The translations under genes were made by a program, and so were the position numbers. 64,000 bases of DNA from Escherichia coli 042 (GTDB lineage: Bacteria > Pseudomonadota > Gammaproteobacteria > Enterobacterales > Enterobacteriaceae), in the NCBI RefSeq assembly GCF_000027125.1, contig NC_017626.1, one strand, 5' to 3'. The notes under the pieces were generated by a model. That model worked only from the letters and a program-made list of their open reading frames with translations. It ran no database searches and was not told where the DNA came from. Below are positions 33,113 through 41,773 of this stretch, one piece after another; within the stretch, counting starts at the first letter, position 1; the number at the start of each line of letters is the position of its first letter.

Positions 33113-33622
33113 ATGAATCAGCAACGATTTGATGACAGCACCCTAATCCGTATCTTCGCCCTTCATGAGTTACATCGACTGAAAGAACATGGCTTAACGC
33201 GCGGGGCGCTTCTCGATTATCACAGCCGCTATAAACTCGTCTTTCTGGCTCATTCCCAGCCGGAATACCGCAAACTTGGCCCGTTCGTGGCTGATATTCA
33301 CCAGTGGCAAAATCTGGATGACTATTACAACCAGTACCGCCAACGCGTAATTGTTTTGCTTTCTCACCTCGCCAACCGACGTGACCACACCAATGTTTTG
33401 ATGCACGTTCAGGGATATTTTCGCCCACATATTGATTCCACAGAACGCCAGCAGCTGGCGGCGCTTATCGACAGTTATCGCCGTGGCGAGCAACCGCTTC
33501 TTGCGCCGCTGATGCGTATCAAACACTATATGGCGCTTTATCCTGACGCCTGGCTTTCAGGGCAGCGTTATTTCGAACTTTGGCCGCGTGTGATTAACTT
33601 GCGCCATGCAGGAGTTTTATGA
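33113..33622 (+). CDS. ybgA: YbgA (DUF1722 protein), 169 aa
   Basis: MNQQRFDDSTLIRIFALHELHRLKEHGLTRGALLDYHSRYK...; 4-nt overlap with phr. Confidence 0.9.
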   Translation: MNQQRFDDSTLIRIFALHELHRLKEHGLTRGALLDYHSRYKLVFLAHSQPEYRKLGPFVADIHQWQNLDDYYNQYRQRVIVLLSHLANRRDHTNVLMHVQGYFRPHIDSTERQQLAALIDSYRRGEQPLLAPLMRIKHYMALYPDAWLSGQRYFELWPRVINLRHAGVL

Positions 33623-35037
33623 CTACCCATCTGGTCTGGTTTCGCCAGGATTTACGTCTGCACGATAATCTCGCACTGGCTGCCGCCTGCCGCAATTCGT
33701 CTGCACGCGTGCTGGCGCTGTATATCGCTACACCACGCCAGTGGGCGACGCATAACATGTCGCCGCGTCAGGCTAAACTTATCAATGCTCAACTGAATGG
33801 GCTACGAATAGCGCTGGCGGAAAAAGGTATTCCTTTATTGTTCCGTGAAGTGGATGACTTTGCCGCCAGCGTCGAAATAATTAAACAGGTGTGCGCGGAA
33901 AACAGCGTTACTCATCTTTTTTATAACTATCAGTATGAGGTGAATGAGCGGGCGCGGGATGTGCAGGTTGAGAGAACGCTGCGTAACGTGTTGTGCGAAG
34001 GGTTTGATGACAGCGTGATCCTGCCGCCTGGCGCGGTGATGACCGGCAATCACGAGATGTACAAAGTCTTTACGCCTTTTAAGAATGCCTGGCTGAAACG
34101 GCTGCGGGAAGGGATGCCGGAGTGCGTCGCTGCACCAAAAGTTCGTAGTAGCGGATCGATAGAGCCCGCGCCATCCATTACGCTGAATTATCCTCGTCAG
34201 TCTTTCGATACTGCGCATTTTCCGGTGGAAGAAAAAGCGGCGATTGCGCAATTACGCCAGTTTTGCCAGAACGGTGCCGGAGAGTATGAGCAACAACGAG
34301 ATTTTCCGGCAGTTGAAGGTACCAGCCGTTTGTCCGCCAGCCTGGCAACGGGCGGGTTATCGCCTCGCCAGTGTCTGCATCGCCTGTTGGCGGAACAGCC
34401 GCAGGCGCTGGACGGTGGGGCCGGTAGTGTCTGGCTTAATGAGCTGATCTGGCGCGAGTTCTACCGCCATTTGATGACGTATTACCCCTCGTTGTGTAAA
34501 CATCGTCCGTTTATTGTCTGGACGGATCGTGTGCAGTGGCAGCGCAATCCCGCCCATTTTAAAGCCTGGCAAGAAGGTAAAACGGGATACCCGATTGTTG
34601 ATGCTGCCATGCGTCAGCTTAACAGCACTGGCTGGATGCATAACCGGCTACGGATGATTACAGCCAGTTTTTTGGTGAAAGATTTATTGATCGACTGGCG
34701 CGAAGGCGAGCGATATTTCATGTCGCAGCTGATTGATGGTGATTTGGCAGCCAATAACGGTGGCTGGCAGTGGGCCGCTTCAACCGGAACCGATGCAGCG
34801 CCGTATTTTCGTATTTTTAACCCGACAACCCAGGGCGAGAAATTTGACCGCGAAGGCGAGTTTATCCGCCGGTGGCTACCGGAACTGCGCGATGTACCAG
34901 GGAAAGCGGTGCATGAGCCGTGGAAGTGGGCGCAGAAAGCAGGTGTGACGCTGGATTATCCGCAACCGATAGTTGATCACAAAGAGGCAAGGCTGCGAAC
35001 GCTGGCAGCGTACGAAGAAGCGAGGAAAGGAGCCTGA
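33619..35037 (+). CDS. phr: Deoxyribodipyrimidine photolyase, 472 aa
   Basis: MTTHLVWFRQDLRLHDNLAL and conserved C-terminal FAD-binding region. Confidence 0.95.
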   Translation: MTTHLVWFRQDLRLHDNLALAAACRNSSARVLALYIATPRQWATHNMSPRQAKLINAQLNGLRIALAEKGIPLLFREVDDFAASVEIIKQVCAENSVTHLFYNYQYEVNERARDVQVERTLRNVLCEGFDDSVILPPGAVMTGNHEMYKVFTPFKNAWLKRLREGMPECVAAPKVRSSGSIEPAPSITLNYPRQSFDTAHFPVEEKAAIAQLRQFCQNGAGEYEQQRDFPAVEGTSRLSASLATGGLSPRQCLHRLLAEQPQALDGGAGSVWLNELIWREFYRHLMTYYPSLCKHRPFIVWTDRVQWQRNPAHFKAWQEGKTGYPIVDAAMRQLNSTGWMHNRLRMITASFLVKDLLIDWREGERYFMSQLIDGDLAANNGGWQWAASTGTDAAPYFRIFNPTTQGEKFDREGEFIRRWLPELRDVPGKAVHEPWKWAQKAGVTLDYPQPIVDHKEARLRTLAAYEEARKGA

Positions 35038-35078: not shown

Positions 35079-36743
<1,665 letters not shown>

Positions 36744-36830
36744 TTAATATGTCAAAAGATTGGCTATCGACGAACAGGCGAGGTAACGCTATGTTAACGG
36801 TGTAGCTATCAGAATACGGAAGGCGCGAAG

Positions 36831-37574
36831 ATGAAAAACACCGAACTGGAACAACTGATTAACGAAAAACTGAACAGCGCGGCGATTAGTGATTACGCGC
36901 CGAATGGTTTGCAGGTGGAAGGCAAAGAGACGGTGCAAAAAATTGTTACCGGTGTCACTGCCAGCCAGGCTTTGCTCGATGAGGCAGTGCGTCTGGGCGC
37001 GGATGCGGTCATTGTGCATCATGGCTACTTCTGGAAAGGCGAATCTCCGGTCATTCGCGGCATGAAGCGTAACCGTTTAAAAACGTTGCTGGCAAATGAT
37101 ATCAACCTGTATGGCTGGCATTTGCCGCTTGACGCACATCCTGAGCTGGGCAATAACGCACAGCTGGCGGCGTTACTGGGGATCACGGTCATGGGCGAAA
37201 TTGAGCCGTTGGTGCCGTGGGGCGAACTGACCATGCCTGTGCCGGGACTGGAACTAGCCTCCTGGATTGAAGCGCGTCTGGGACGTAAGCCGTTATGGTG
37301 TGGCGATACCGGACCTGAGGTGGTCCAGCGCGTTGCCTGGTGCACGGGCGGCGGGCAAAGTTTTATCGATAGCGCCGCGCGTTTTGGCGTGGATGCTTTT
37401 ATTACTGGCGAAGTTTCTGAACAGACCATTCATTCAGCCCGCGAGCAGGGATTGCATTTTTATGCTGCGGGTCACCATGCCACTGAACGTGGTGGTATTC
37501 GCGCGTTGAGCGAGTGGCTGAATGAAAATACCGATCTTGATGTGACCTTTATTGATATTCCTAATCCTGCATAA
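36831..37574 (+). CDS. ybgI: Nif3-family metal-binding protein YbgI, 247 aa
   Basis: Full-length ORF; conserved His-rich metal-binding residues. Confidence 0.92.
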   Translation: MKNTELEQLINEKLNSAAISDYAPNGLQVEGKETVQKIVTGVTASQALLDEAVRLGADAVIVHHGYFWKGESPVIRGMKRNRLKTLLANDINLYGWHLPLDAHPELGNNAQLAALLGITVMGEIEPLVPWGELTMPVPGLELASWIEARLGRKPLWCGDTGPEVVQRVAWCTGGGQSFIDSAARFGVDAFITGEVSEQTIHSAREQGLHFYAAGHHATERGGIRALSEWLNENTDLDVTFIDIPNPA

Positions 37575-37596
37575 CGAATAATCAGAGGGATCGAAA

Positions 37597-38253
37597 GTGC
37601 AACGAGCGCGTTGTTATCTGATAGGTGAAACGGCGGTAGTGCTGGAACTGGAACCGCCGGTGACGCTGGCTAGCCAGAAACGGATCTGGCGACTGGCACA
37701 GCGTCTGGTGGATATGCCGAATGTGGTTGAAGCCATTCCCGGCATGAACAATATCACGGTGATTTTGCGTAATCCTGAGTCGCTGGCGCTGGATGCCATA
37801 GAGCGTTTGCAACGCTGGTGGGAGGAGAGTGAGGCGCTGGAGCCGGAGTCTCGCTTTATTGAAATTCCGGTGGTTTACGGTGGTGCAGGCGGACCGGATT
37901 TAGCGGTGGTCGCGGCGCATTGTGGGTTGAGTGAGAAACAGGTTGTTGAATTGCACTCCTCCGTGGAATACGTGGTCTGGTTTTTAGGTTTTCAACCGGG
38001 CTTCCCGTATCTCGGGAGTTTGCCGGAACAACTACACACGCCACGGCGCGCTGAACCGCGCTTGCTCGTTCCGGCAGGTTCTGTCGGGATCGGCGGGCCG
38101 CAGACTGGTGTTTATCCGCTGGCAACGCCGGGTGGCTGGCAGTTGATTGGTCATACCTCACTCAGCCTGTTTGATCCGGCGCGTGACGAACCCATCTTAT
38201 TACGTCCGGGAGACAGCGTGCGCTTTGTACCGCAGAAGGAGGGAGTATGCTGA
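37597..38253 (+). CDS. pxpB: 5-oxoprolinase subunit B (allophanate hydrolase subunit 1-like), 218 aa, GTG start
   Basis: Full-length ORF; 7-nt overlap with pxpC. Confidence 0.9.
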
Positions 38254-39179
38254 AGATTATTCGTGCGGGCATGTATACCACTGTGCAGGATGGCGGTCGT
38301 CACGGTTTTCGCCAGTCGGGTATCAGCCACTGCGGCGCACTGGATATGCCTGCGTTACGCATTGCTAACCTGCTGGTGGGTAATGACGCCAATGCCCCCG
38401 CGCTGGAGATAACGCTCGGTCAGTTAACGGTAGAGTTCGAAACTGATGGTTGGTTTGCCCTGACGGGGGCAGGTTGCGAAGCGCGGCTGGATGATAATGC
38501 CGTCTGGACTGGCTGGCGCTTGCCGATGAAAGCAGGCCAGCGTTTAACGCTTAAACGCCCGCAGCACGGGATGCGCAGTTATCTGGCGGTCGCGGGTGGT
38601 ATTGATGTTCCGCCGGTAATGGGGTCATGCAGTACCGATCTCAAAGTGGGGATTGGCGGGCTGGAAGGCCGTTTACTGAAGGATGGTGACCGACTCCCGA
38701 TGGGTAAATCGAAGCGTGATTTTATGGAAGCGCAGGGCGTTAAACAGCTGCTGTGGGGCAACCGCATTCGCGCCTTGCCGGGGCCGGAATATCATGAGTT
38801 CGATCGCGCCTCGCAGGATGCATTCTGGCGTTCGCCCTGGCAGCTTAGTCCGCAAAGTAACCGCATGGGCTATCGCTTACAGGGGCAAATTTTAAAACGC
38901 ACCACCGATCGCGAACTGTTATCTCACGGTTTGTTGCCGGGTGTGGTGCAAGTGCCGCATAACGGCCAGCCGATTGTATTGATGAACGACGCACAGACCA
39001 CCGGTGGTTATCCGCGTATTGCCTGTATCATTGAGGCTGATATGTACCATCTGGCGCAAATTCCGCTCGGTCAGCCGATTCATTTTGTCCAGTGTTCACT
39101 GGAAGAGGCACTGAAAGCGCGGCAAGATCAACAACGTTATTTCGAACAATTAGCGTGGCGGCTGCACAATGAAAATTGA
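38247..39179 (+). CDS. pxpC: 5-oxoprolinase subunit C (allophanate hydrolase subunit 2-like), 310 aa
   Basis: Full-length ORF; 11-nt overlap with pxpA. Confidence 0.9.
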
Positions 39180-39903
39180 CCTGAACGCCGATCTGGGCGA
39201 AGGCTGCGCCAGCGACGCAGAGCTATTAACGCTGGTTTCCTCTGCCAATATTGCTTGTGGATTTCATGCAGGCGATGCGCAAACCATGCAGGTTTGCGTG
39301 CGTGAAGCAATAAAAAATGGTGTCGCGATTGGCGCTCACCCGAGTTTTCCCGACCGGGAAAATTTTGGTCGCAGTGCCATGCAGCTGCCGCCAGAAACCG
39401 TTTACGCCCAGACGCTGTATCAAATTGGCGCGCTGGCAGCGATTACCCGTGCACAAGGGGGCGTAATGCGTCATGTCAAACCGCACGGCATGTTATACAA
39501 CCAGGCGGCGAAAGAGGCACAACTGGCAGACGCCATCGCCAGAGCGGTATACGCTTGCGATCCGTCATTGATTCTCGTCGGGCTGGCGGGAAGCGAGCTG
39601 ATTCGTGCAGGCAAGCGATATGGTCTGATAACGCGCGAGGAAGTGTTTGCCGATCGCGGTTATCAGGCTGACGGCTCGCTGGTGCCGCGAAGCCAGCCAG
39701 GCGCGTTGATTGAAAACGAAGAACAGGCGCTGGCGCAAACGTTGGAGATGGTGCAACACGGCAGAGTCAAAAGTATCAACGGCGAATGGGCAACGGTCAC
39801 GGCGCAAACGGTCTGCCTGCATGGCGATGGAGAGCACGCACTGGCATTCGCCCGCCGACTACGCTCTACATTTGCCGAAAAGGGGATTGTTGTCGCAGCA
39901 TAA
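39169..39903 (+). CDS. pxpA: 5-oxoprolinase subunit A (LamB/YcsF family), 244 aa
   Basis: [20 protein letters not shown]... Confidence 0.9.
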
Positions 39904-39938
39904 CCCCGCTTAATAAAGAATGAAAAAAGGATATCACC

Positions 39939-40730
39939 ATGCCTGAAGGCCCGGAGATCCGCCGTGCAGCGGATAACCTGGAGGCGGCGATCAAAGGCAA
40001 ACCACTAACTGATGTCTGGTTTGCCTTCCCGCAGTTAGAACCTTATCAATCACAACTTATCGGTCAACACGTTACCCATGTGGAAACGCGAGGTAAGGCG
40101 TTGTTAACTCATTTTTCCAACGGTTTAACGCTCTACAGCCATAATCAGCTTTACGGCGTCTGGCGCGTGGTTGATACCGGCGAAGAGCCGCAGACCACGC
40201 GAGTATTGCGGGTAAAACTGCAAACGGCTGACAAAACCATTCTGCTTTATAGCGCCTCGGATATTGAGATGTTGACCCCGGAACAACTGACCACGCATCC
40301 GTTTTTACAACGCGTTGGCCCCGATGTGCTGGATCCGAATCTGACGCCGGAGGTGGTAAAGGAACGATTATTGTCGCCGCGCTTTCGTAACTGTCAGTTT
40401 GCTGGATTACTGCTCGATCAGGCGTTTCTGGCAGGACTTGGCAATTATTTGCGGGTGGAGATCCTCTGGCAGGTGGGGTTAACCGGCAATCATAAAGCGA
40501 AAGATCTCAGTGCGGCGCAACTGGATGCACTCGCACACGCGTTACTGGATATTCCTCGACTTTCTTACGCTACGCGGGGGCAGGTGGATGAGAATAAACA
40601 TCATGGGGCGTTGTTTCGCTTTAAGGTTTTTCATCGTGATGGCGAACCGTGTGAACGCTGTGGCAGCATCATTGAGAAAACCACGTTGTCCTCGCGCCCG
40701 TTTTACTGGTGTCCAGGCTGCCAACACTAG
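39939..40730 (+). CDS. nei: Endonuclease VIII (Fpg/Nei DNA glycosylase), 263 aa
   Basis: N-terminal MPEGPEI catalytic Pro2/Glu3; C-terminal zinc finger CxxC-N16-CxxC. Confidence 0.95.
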
Positions 40731-41773
40731 GCCGACCGCTTCGGCGCATAGGTTGAAATAAACCGCGCAATGGCTGGCCCCGTCAGCAAAATACTGAACA
40801 GGCGCAGGGTTTGCATCGCCATAATAAGCGCCATATCGGCATTGCTCCCTGCGGCGATGACCGCCACGGTATCAAGCCCGCCGGGACTGGTGGCGAGGTA
40901 GGCGGTCATAAAATCAATATGCATAAACCGGGTCAGCCCCCACGCCATACCTGCACAAATAGCCAGCAGAGCAAAAATCGACAGCAAGATTTGTGGCAGT
41001 GGGCGCAATGCTCGCAGTAAGATTTGCTTATCGAAACCAAGACCAATCCGCCAGCCAATTGCCATATACGCCATCGCCAGCAGCCATTCCGGGAGTTCAA
41101 TCGTGATGAGCTGACCAGACTGGAGCACTGCGCCCGCCAGCATCGGGATGAGCATTGTGCCGGAAGGAAGACGTAGCAAGCATCCCGCCGTACCGGCAAC
41201 GACCGCGAGCAAAATCGTAAGCAGGAGATTAATGCTCACTGGCGGGAACCAGACGATCTGCTGGTTAACCGCTTCAGCGTTATCGCCCAGCATCATGCGG
41301 GTGACCAGAACAGCGGCCCCCGCGACGAACAGCACTCGCAGATATTGCATAAATGCCACCAGGCGAATATCTGCGCCGTAATCTTGCGCCATAGCGACCA
41401 TTGCCGCCGCGCCGCCAGGAGAAGAACCCCAGGCACCGGTATTTCCAGGCAGTGAGCTATAGCGCACCAATAACCAACCCACGATGGCGCTGGAAAGCAG
41501 CGTCACCAGTAAAATGGCTAACACTATCGGCCAGTTGGCGGCCAACGTGGTGAGAATCGAACCAGTGAGGTTTTGCGCAATCATACAGCCAAGAATGGCC
41601 TGCGCGGCGAGAAAAGCGGAGCGGGGAAGTTGCAGAGTAATTCCGCGCATACTAAAGATGATCCCGGCGATCATCGGCCCAAGTAATAGTGCCGCCGGGA
41701 GATGTACCGCGAGGAAACCAATAGAAAGGAGAAGTGATAGCACACATAACATTCCCCACTGCAAAATTGGCAT
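40727..41773 (-). CDS. abrB: AbrB (AidB regulator) family membrane protein, 348 aa
   Basis: [20 protein letters not shown] start at ATG 41771-41773; stop overlaps the nei stop by 4 nt (convergent). Confidence 0.88.

Follow-up and report, generated by a model that had tools for sequence, protein, structure and literature searches.

We conclude with high confidence that the interval from 36,831 to 39,903 in the analysed window (the whole 64,000-nucleotide stretch of the Escherichia coli 042 contig NC_017626.1) covers all but the last gene of ybgI-pxpB-pxpC-pxpA-nei, a known operon of five genes, and that the tight joining of ybgI to the 5-oxoprolinase genes is most likely the outcome of a historical fusion. 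The ybgI-pxpBCA-nei operon is an already annotated and published core unit of E. coli. Comparison of the pxp module among species indicates that co-transcription of ybgI with pxpBCA most likely reflects a historical, lineage-specific fusion and not a role of YbgI in 5-oxoproline metabolism.

The features of the locus are collected in Table 1. The five genes are encoded on a single strand, their successive distances are short or negative (22, -7, -11 and 35 nt), and no intrinsic terminator lies between them, as is expected of an operon. A site scan returned no terminator-like site at the ybgI-pxpB or pxpA-nei gap, and neither gap folded into a hairpin with a T-run behind it. In a table derived from RegulonDB, 'nei,ybgI,ybgJ,ybgK,ybgL' form a single operon entry (PMC4448311), and Gifford & Wallace 2000 (cited in PMC6467930) describes nei in its title as transcribed as the terminal gene of an operon. 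The first-pass annotation had presented a compact four-gene operon and proposed operon mapping as a check. The order and strand of ybgI-pxpBCA stand and the listing agrees with a single unit, but both the sequence and the listing (and, as far as its title goes, the 2000 paper) extend that unit past pxpA to nei. Its other structural statements are borne out: the four gene identities agree with NCBIfam, Pfam and the MG1655/RefSeq annotation, the 7-nt and 11-nt overlaps are exact in the sequence, the GTG start of pxpB is upheld by the evidence given below, and the label of core sequence fits a 4.3-kb stretch found in 5424 of 5426 complete E. coli genomes. The coordinates of MG1655 b0710-b0713 show the same pattern, and the closest complete genome to the 042 stretch, that of a dog isolate with 99.7% identity, is annotated with the same layout.

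Table 1. Positions of genes, junctions and candidate regulatory features at the ybgI-nei locus, in window coordinates.
Feature	Position	Strand	Description	Source
phr (photolyase)	33619..35037	+	annotated	ORF list
dtpD	35079..36560	-	opposite-strand gene between phr and ybgI	
Inverted repeat, perfect, 12 nt	36650-36661 + 36672-36683 (feature 36650..36687)	.		repeat search
Candidate ybgI promoter	36767..36795	+	-35 TCGACG, 17-nt spacer, -10 TATGTT; predicted start near 36802	
ybgI	36831-37574	+	ATG start, 247 aa	ORF list and sequence
ybgI-pxpB spacer, 22 nt	37575..37596	+	holds pxpB Shine-Dalgarno GAGGGA; K-12 spacer identical	
pxpB (formerly ybgJ)	37597-38253	+	GTG start, 218 aa	ORF list and sequence
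pxpB/pxpC overlap, 7 nt	38247..38253	+	ATGCTGA	sequence
pxpC (formerly ybgK)	38247-39179	+	ATG start, 310 aa	ORF list and sequence
pxpC/pxpA overlap, 11 nt	39169..39179	+	ATGAAAATTGA	sequence
pxpA (formerly ybgL)	39169-39903	+	LamB/YcsF family; ATG start, 244 aa	
pxpA-nei spacer, 35 nt	39904..39938	+	small hairpin without T-run after it; Shine-Dalgarno AAGGA	
nei (endonuclease VIII)	39939-40730	+	final gene of unit; beyond interval first reported	
nei stop/abrB stop convergent overlap, 4 nt	40727..40730	.		annotated coordinates

All five products scored above NCBIfam equivalog cut-offs, each with the expected Pfam families. YbgI has a full-length Pfam match to PF01784 (225 bits against a cut-off of 23.4), NCBIfam matches to NF008064 (531.6 bits, cut-off 414) and TIGR00486 (276.9, cut-off 130.55), and an alignment of residues 1-247 to PDB 1NMO with an E-value of 1e-168. 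The His, Asp and Glu residues of the dinuclear metal site are kept, as judged by identity with K-12 and the 1NMO alignment rather than residue by residue. By these matches YbgI is a Nif3/DUF34 protein with a predicted dinuclear metal centre. Nei scored 498.4 bits against the NF007763 cut-off of 252 (NCBIfam) and carries the Fapy N-terminal (PF01149), H2TH (PF06831) and C-terminal zinc finger (PF06827) domains; its sequence starts with MPEGPE, which includes the N-terminal Pro-Glu, and ends with CERC...CPGC.

5-Oxoproline forms spontaneously, and the ATP-dependent prokaryotic 5-oxoprolinase recovers glutamate from it. PxpB matched TIGR00370 (355.6 bits, cut-off 145.55) and PF02682, PxpC matched NF045499 (595.8 bits, cut-off 500) and PF02626, and PxpA matched NF003812 (516 bits, cut-off 378) and PDB 1XW8 (E-value 7.5e-152). 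PxpA, PxpB and PxpC jointly form the prokaryotic enzyme, and their genes are clustered (PMC13274462; PMC10448178); conversion of 5-oxoproline to glutamate by PxpABC with ATP, for which none of the three subunits is dispensable, is reported for Bacillus subtilis and Corynebacterium glutamicum (PMC13274462). In 042 the three genes are contiguous on one strand and cover each of the three subunit families, and we predict that their products form an ATP-dependent 5-oxoprolinase.

The GTG start of pxpB is well anchored. An in-frame stop at 37579 lies 18 nt upstream of the GTG with no start codon between them, residues 5 and 9 are the first covered by the Pfam and TIGR00370 matches, and the MG1655 and RefSeq annotations use the identical start. 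The homologous position holds a start codon in 50 of 52 other species with pxpB at the locus, and this codon is GTG in 34 loci, TTG in 14 and ATG in 2 (non-ATG in 48/50). The conserved weak start could set the entry level for the PxpB-PxpC pair.

The overlap of pxpB and pxpC by 7 nt is kept in 50 of the 51 species where both genes can be placed, and the junction of pxpC and pxpA measures -11 in at least 26 loci, -4 in six and -17 in one. Such conservation of the 7-nt and 11-nt overlaps argues that the arrangement is not a chance pattern of open reading frames. The start and stop codons overlap in both pairs across species, which is the structural hallmark of translational coupling, so translation of pxpC and pxpA may be coupled to that of the preceding gene. 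A strong Shine-Dalgarno sequence for pxpC (AAGGAGG, duplex energy -12.2 kcal/mol) lies within the last codons of pxpB. The Shine-Dalgarno sequence of pxpA is weak (-4.8 kcal/mol), and for this reason its translation probably depends on ribosomes that terminate on pxpC.

We also examined the region for regulatory elements. Transcription of the unit would start between dtpD and ybgI, at a weak promoter of the sigma-70 type for which the sequence listed in Table 1 is our candidate. Both of its hexamers are conserved, with a variable spacer, in an alignment of 10/10 dtpD-containing genomes, and its position is a prediction by phylogenetic footprinting. The consensus scan returned no promoter on the + strand in 36400-41000; the candidate matches 8 of 12 consensus positions, which is why the scan missed it. 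An extended -10 sequence, TGATATAAA at 36703-36711, was rejected as the ybgI promoter because this stretch is not conserved between genera. The 12-nt inverted repeat overlaps a 29-nt block (36659-36687) that is conserved across six genera in the 10-genome alignment. We considered it as a site for a regulator of ybgI; however, the repeat lies nearer to dtpD and its right arm alone is conserved, and it is a candidate promoter or operator of dtpD that probably does not belong to the ybgI unit. A further promoter may lie within ybgI or pxpA. No entry for ybgI, the pxp genes or nei is present in the SMRT-Cappable-seq or eLife 3'-end map supplements. Literature searches on 'ybgIJKL' and its variants, or on YbgI with radiation, gave nothing usable, and an apparent mention of ybgI in a ChIP-exo paper was rejected as a typo for ygbI. 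A riboswitch or leader RNA at the locus was ruled out by zero Rfam matches at the E-value threshold in the 35-42 kb part of the window and in eight related loci.

In order to determine how widely the arrangement is conserved, as the first-pass annotation had proposed, we compared 80 species loci taken from a genome scan; the protein homologue listing covered relatives with at least 75% identity. The gene order holds within Enterobacterales but not beyond: pxpB directly follows ybgI in 52 of the 80 loci, and this adjacency is limited to that order. Spacing differs between families. The tight spacing of 11-22 nt occurs in Enterobacteriaceae only, whereas in Yersiniaceae and Erwiniaceae the gap measures 100-420 nt and mostly contains a conserved promoter-like motif before pxpB. 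The fuller form of the cluster is phr-ybgI-pxpBCA-DUF969-DUF979-pcp-nei, in which the inserted genes were identified as DUF969, DUF979 and Peptidase_C15; DUF969 and DUF979 are a transporter-like pair and pcp encodes a pyroglutamyl peptidase. In Pluralibacter, Cedecea and Shimwellia, no pxpA stands next to pxpB and pxpC.

The motif, TTGACA-N17/18-[CG]ATAA[CA], is located 33-125 nt upstream of pxpB in 16 of 28 long-gap loci, against a background of only 15 other matches in 2.47 Mb. It has no usual final T of the -10 hexamer, and the consensus promoter scan did not call it in Serratia, Pantoea or Yersinia. Its conservation suggests a promoter, and it could instead be an operator.

These observations are consistent with the following history. 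The pxp genes would form a self-contained pyroglutamate module, accompanied in many genera by DUF969, DUF979 and pcp; ybgI precedes this module and nei follows it, and phr opens the cluster. A promoter-like element of its own would govern the module in Yersiniaceae and Erwiniaceae, while in Enterobacteriaceae the ybgI-pxpB spacer would have collapsed to its present length and so fused ybgI to the module. In Escherichia, DUF969, DUF979 and pcp would have been lost and dtpD gained between phr and ybgI. From the distribution among families we infer that the direction was fusion in Enterobacteriaceae and not splitting elsewhere.

An alternative view of the same cluster is that it is a selected 'damage-control' unit, in which photolyase, YbgI, 5-oxoprolinase (as metabolite repair) and endonuclease VIII are needed under the same stress. 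The most persistent link of ybgI is indeed to phr, which is found upstream in 55 of 80 loci, directly adjacent and on the same strand in most Enterobacterales, and frequently with the phr stop codon overlapping the ybgI start codon; in 33 of these 55 loci the two genes are -11 to +108 nt apart. At the other end, nei stays in place whatever gene precedes it, at a distance of -1 to 87 nt from the same-strand gene before it in 37 of the 39 species with nei, and the RefSeq name of YbgI is 'radiation resistance protein'. We nevertheless regard this explanation as unlikely. We found no expression or phenotype link among the four functions, and the cluster is absent from Morganellaceae and all outgroups. 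The E. coli lineage itself separated phr from ybgI by the insertion of dtpD, a gene that occupies this position in 9/80 loci and only in Escherichia, Citrobacter, Kluyvera, Superficieibacter, Pseudocitrobacter and strain RIT691. Moreover, inheritance alone can preserve gene order within one bacterial order. A stronger form, in which phr-ybgI-(pyroglutamate module)-nei is a selected damage-control unit, YbgI acts in support of at least one neighbour and the E. coli fusion is adaptive and not accidental, appears to us quite unlikely. Under it YbgI might bring metal into the zinc-finger protein Nei or into PxpA, or might act on damaged DNA together with photolyase and Nei.

That YbgI is a functional partner of 5-oxoprolinase, for example a divalent-metal loader for PxpA or PxpBC, with compactness serving co-production, would account for the adjacency in 52 loci and the short spacers of Enterobacteriaceae. 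The pxp operon of B. subtilis and other bacteria holds the Mn2+ importer gene ycsG/mntG (PMC10448178), which means that metal-related genes recur beside pxp genes. The association is confined to Enterobacterales, however, and does not hold throughout that order: unrelated genes flank ybgI in Morganellaceae, Pasteurellaceae, Vibrio, Aeromonas and Zobellella, ybgI is split from pxpB by opposite-strand or unrelated genes in Hafnia, Rahnella and Phytobacter, it remains with phr and nei in the absence of pxp in Budvicia and Klebsiella sp. BIGb0407, and the motif described above gives pxpB a separate promoter-like element in Yersiniaceae and Erwiniaceae. The pxp orthologous groups that we searched for (COG2049, COG1984 and COG1540) are absent from the main text of the DUF34 review, including its table of 20 top co-occurring COGs (PMC8469502). 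Because the arrangement is compact in Enterobacteriaceae only, with a long gap or inserted genes elsewhere, it is weak evidence for a functional link, and we consider such a partnership very unlikely. The earlier description of the connection between YbgI and 5-oxoproline metabolism as poorly defined was, in our judgement, correct.

It is highly improbable that pxpBCA(-nei) is transcribed apart from ybgI by a promoter in the 3' part of ybgI, so that the operon is one in appearance only: other families do carry a promoter-like element just upstream of pxpB, and ybgI contains one match to that motif (37129-37157) and a weak terminator-like hairpin (37372-37392), but the match lies about 440 nt upstream of pxpB, far beyond the range of the motif elsewhere and to be read against its background frequency, the region's count of terminator-like sites, 10, is no clear excess over the shuffled expectation of 5.8 +/- 2.2, the 22-nt gap leaves no room for a terminator and a promoter, and the RegulonDB-derived data give a single five-gene operon.

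Under the fusion that we favour, gene neighborhood should carry little weight as an argument for placing YbgI in 5-oxoproline metabolism, since the tight linkage would be a recent event confined to Enterobacteriaceae. Within Enterobacterales, ybgI has older and more persistent neighbors in two DNA-repair genes, phr and nei. The operon itself matters little, as its description restates a core operon, and the comparative results offer modest context for work on Nif3/DUF34 proteins. The locus also shows, as clean examples, a 7-nt overlap and a weak start codon that are both conserved, together with an operon that appears to have been remodelled by loss of an intergenic promoter.

The closest known system is the K-12 operon ybgI-pxpB-pxpC-pxpA-nei (b0710-b0714; formerly ybgIJKL-nei), which has the same genes, order and strand, the same spacers of 22 and 35 nt, the same 7-nt and 11-nt overlaps, and the same GTG start. 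The two operons share 97.6% nucleotide identity with zero gaps and differ only allelically: YbgI and PxpB are identical in amino acid sequence, while PxpC, PxpA and Nei carry 3, 11 and 6 amino acid changes, respectively. The extended cluster, seen for example in Citrobacter, Serratia, Yersinia and Pantoea, shares with 042 the backbone, the orientation, the 7-nt overlap and a non-ATG start of pxpB. In contrast to it, 042 is without DUF969, DUF979 and pcp, has dtpD between phr and ybgI, and has a ybgI-pxpB gap of 22 nt in place of one of 100-420 nt with a promoter-like motif.

More distant counterparts are ycsF-kipI-kipA of B. subtilis and pxpTABC of C. glutamicum, which encode the same three families as 042 (LamB/YcsF, CT_C_D and CT_A_B). 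Their clusters differ from that of 042, where the order is B-C-A with pxpA last and the genes are set between ybgI and nei. They also have a dedicated transporter and regulator (pxpT and pxpR in C. glutamicum, ycsG/mntG and kipR in B. subtilis), and the E. coli cluster has none. Within the Nif3/DUF34 family, which includes YbgI, YqfO, NIF3L1 and HcgD, the 042 YbgI sequence is that of the protein crystallised in PDB 1NMO/1NMP. Across bacteria the usual neighbors of DUF34 genes are COG1579, sigA and dnaG (PMC8469502); unlike that neighborhood, the pxp/nei context of ybgI in 042 is lineage-specific.

Four consecutive plus-strand genes, ybgI, pxpB, pxpC and pxpA, lie exactly where the first-pass annotation had placed them, and both overlaps that it described can be read in the sequence: 7 nt between pxpB and pxpC (ATGCTGA) and 11 nt between pxpC and pxpA (ATGAAAATTGA). 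The gap between ybgI and pxpB is 22 nt. The GTG start of pxpB, also claimed there, has good support: the frame is closed by a stop codon 18 nt upstream, the interval holds no alternative start codon, the PxpB domain models start at residues 5 and 9, and the same start is used in the RefSeq annotation of MG1655 (b0711) and of the closest genome.

Features of the ybgI-pxpBCA-nei region and its upstream flank (ybgI to pxpA positions from ORF table and sequence; Shine-Dalgarno strength as duplex energy of pairing with the anti-Shine-Dalgarno sequence)
Feature	Coordinates	Strand	Description	Shine-Dalgarno (kcal/mol)	NCBIfam equivalog score (cut-off)
phr	33619-35037
dtpD	35079-36560	-
Inverted repeat region	36650-36687		perfect 12-nt arms
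Conserved island 1	36659-36687		29-nt block, closer to dtpD
Conserved island 2, first element	36767-36772		TCGACG
Conserved island 2, second element	36790-36795		TATGTT
ybgI	36831-37574	+	ATG start, 247 aa	-5.7	531.6 (414)
Weak terminator-like hairpin	37372-37392	+	within ybgI coding sequence
pxpB	37597-38253	+	GTG start, 218 aa	GAGGGA, -6.3	355.6 (145.55)
pxpC	38247-39179	+	310 aa	AAGGAGG, within final pxpB codons, -12.2	595.8 (500)
pxpA	39169-39903	+	244 aa	-4.8	516 (378)
nei	39939-40730	+	35 nt after pxpA	AAGGA, -5.4	498.4 (252)
nei/abrB stop codon overlap	40727-40730		4 nt, convergent genes

All five products match the expected Pfam families, and YbgI and PxpA match the E. coli crystal structures 1NMO (YbgI, E 1e-168) and 1XW8 (YbgL, now PxpA, E 7.5e-152). 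The region belongs to the E. coli chromosome; a 4.3-kb query from it hit 5424 of the 5426 complete E. coli genomes, the best at 99.7% identity. Identity to MG1655 is 97.6% with zero gaps; YbgI and PxpB have the same amino-acid sequence as in K-12, PxpC differs at 3 positions and Nei at 6, and PxpA is the most diverged product, in which 23 nucleotide changes alter 11 amino acids. An Rfam search of the region gave zero family matches. One 425-aa NCBI protein (P0002), carrying both PF01784 and PF02682, resembles a YbgI-PxpB fusion and is 100% identical to YbgI across the matched part; being a singleton, it probably reflects a frameshift or an error in assembly or annotation.

The gene set of the proposed ybgI-pxpBCA operon was correct, but the unit had been cut off too early. 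It runs beyond pxpA to include nei on the same strand, and the ybgI-pxpBCA-nei operon is already known: it appears as the single entry 'nei,ybgI,ybgJ,ybgK,ybgL' in an operon table derived from RegulonDB (PMC4448311). No terminator-like sites were reported at the ybgI-pxpB and pxpA-nei gaps, and folding of both yielded no more than a small hairpin that lacks a T-run. The 10 terminator-like sites in the region are not clearly more than the shuffled expectation of 5.8 +/- 2.2. The overlap of the nei and abrB stop codons leaves no intergenic room for a terminator; the mechanical abrB ORF has 374 aa from a TTG, and the annotated gene 348 aa. Within the unit, the Shine-Dalgarno energies and the overlaps are compatible with translational coupling of pxpC, and of pxpA above all, to the preceding gene. 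The 7-nt overlap is kept in 50 of 51 loci of our species comparison; between pxpC and pxpA, at least 26 loci share the 11-nt overlap, six have one of 4 nt and one has 17 nt. At the homologous position, 34 loci have GTG as the pxpB start and 14 have TTG; only two (both Dickeya) have ATG, so the weak start of pxpB seems to be maintained.

The comparison started from a YbgI genome scan that returned 80 species, with identities running from 100% in E. coli down to 58-66% in Vibrio, Aeromonas and Pasteurellaceae; neighboring genes were placed by tblastn at the 80 loci and counted. The arrangement had been called conserved core sequence, which holds among E. coli genomes but is overstated more widely: pxpB follows ybgI on the same strand at 52 of the 80 loci, every one from Enterobacterales (Enterobacteriaceae, Erwiniaceae, Pectobacteriaceae, Yersiniaceae and Hafnia). 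None of the Morganellaceae, Edwardsiella, Pasteurellaceae, Aeromonas, Zobellella and Vibrio loci has a pxp neighbor of ybgI; in these groups ybgI is flanked by unrelated genes, namely DUF1853, dienelactone hydrolase, a formyltransferase, a radical-SAM protein, an enoyl-ACP reductase family protein and an MFS transporter.

Upstream, phr precedes ybgI at 55 loci, with a gap of -11 to +108 nt at 33 of them and overlapping stop and start codons at seven. Only -11 to +35 nt separate the phr stop from the ybgI start in most Enterobacterales, which suggests that an ancestral transcription unit may have run from phr through nei. The presence of dtpD between phr and ybgI at only nine of the 80 loci (Escherichia, Citrobacter, Kluyvera, Superficieibacter, Pseudocitrobacter and RIT691) points to a later, lineage-specific insertion. 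When ten genomes from six genera are aligned across the dtpD-ybgI intergenic region, two conserved islands emerge from otherwise variable sequence. The first covers the right arm and spacer of the inverted repeat TATTTATGCAAT-N10-ATTGCATAAATA, invariant in all ten genomes; the repeat is probably a dtpD promoter or operator. In the second, TCGACG and TATGTT are separated by 17 variable nt, as the elements of a weak sigma-70 promoter would be, and we infer a candidate ybgI promoter, from which transcription would start about 28 nt upstream of the ybgI ATG. A consensus promoter scan of the plus strand found none in 36400-41000.

The variable part of the cluster is the ybgI-pxpB junction. Nearly all Enterobacteriaceae have a gap of 11-22 nt, compared with 100-424 nt in Erwiniaceae, Pectobacteriaceae and Yersiniaceae; in Rahnella, Hafnia and Phytobacter a stretch of 1.8-4.2 kb with other genes lies between the two (an opposite-strand MFS transporter in Rahnella; PhnA-like, phosphorylase and other genes in Hafnia, all on the opposite strand; same-strand genes in Phytobacter). 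Aligned long gaps carry GC-rich hairpins directly 3' of ybgI, often preceding a conserved motif, TTGACA-N17/18-[CG]ATAA[CA], which lies 33-125 nt upstream of pxpB at 16 of 28 Erwiniaceae, Yersiniaceae and Rahnella loci (for example, 8830-8858 in locus L032 and 9068-9096 in L046) and has only 15 other matches on both strands of 2.47 Mb of locus sequence. It still adjoins pxpB in Rahnella despite the insertion, and is absent from the short Enterobacteriaceae gaps. Because its putative -10 element ends in C or A instead of T, the motif was not called by the consensus promoter scan; it could be an operator and not a promoter. Promoter or operator alike, pxpB has a conserved upstream signal of its own in the families with the motif. 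The simplest reading of the E. coli state is that the intergenic region was lost, which would have joined ybgI to a pxp-nei unit that had once been separate.

YbgI is a dinuclear-metal Nif3/DUF34 protein, now named 'radiation resistance protein' in RefSeq. The name reportedly goes back to studies of survival after ionising radiation that used transposon sequencing. PxpABC is the prokaryotic ATP-dependent 5-oxoprolinase (PMC13274462; PMC10448178). A comparative study of DUF34 disputes 'GTP cyclohydrolase I type 2' as an annotation and puts forward a role as metal chaperone or insertase; the pxp groups COG2049, COG1984 and COG1540 do not appear in its main text, including the table of the top-20 DUF34-co-occurring COGs (PMC8469502). 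For ybgI and pxp we favor historical linkage over a shared pathway. A role of YbgI in metal delivery is possible, and the pxp operons of Bacillus and other bacteria include a Mn2+ importer (PMC10448178).

Downstream, nei is found at 39 loci, at 37 of them -1 to 87 nt after the preceding gene, which is pcp (21), pxpA (9), pxpC (5) or ybgI (2). Budvicia and Klebsiella sp. BIGb0407 have phr-ybgI-nei without pxp genes. At the locus level pxpA is absent from L014, L020, L025, L026 and L029, and also from L028, L059 and L061; in Pluralibacter, Cedecea, Shimwellia and two other Enterobacteriaceae, pxpB and pxpC are intact and nei begins 8-20 nt after pxpC. At L036, L041, L054 and L059 (several Erwiniaceae and Dickeya) the cluster appears to adjoin gltA (minus strand) and sdhCDAB directly, as assigned by ORF sizes and order only (427-428 aa on the opposite strand, then 115-198 aa, and 592 aa in two of the four). 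These loci lack abrB and the ybgOPQ fimbrial operon, whereas E. coli has both between nei and gltA.

Such comparative details (the Enterobacteriaceae-specific fusion, the loss of DUF969, DUF979 and pcp, the dtpD insertion, the 7-nt overlap and the non-ATG start) are tidy but incremental. In many genera DUF969, DUF979 and a pyroglutamyl peptidase (Pfam Peptidase_C15) lie between pxpA and nei, giving a full cluster of phr-ybgI-pxpB-pxpC-pxpA-DUF969-DUF979-pcp-nei. Together with the pxp genes these three form a coherent pyroglutamate unit; in contrast to the full cluster, Escherichia and Enterobacter are without them.
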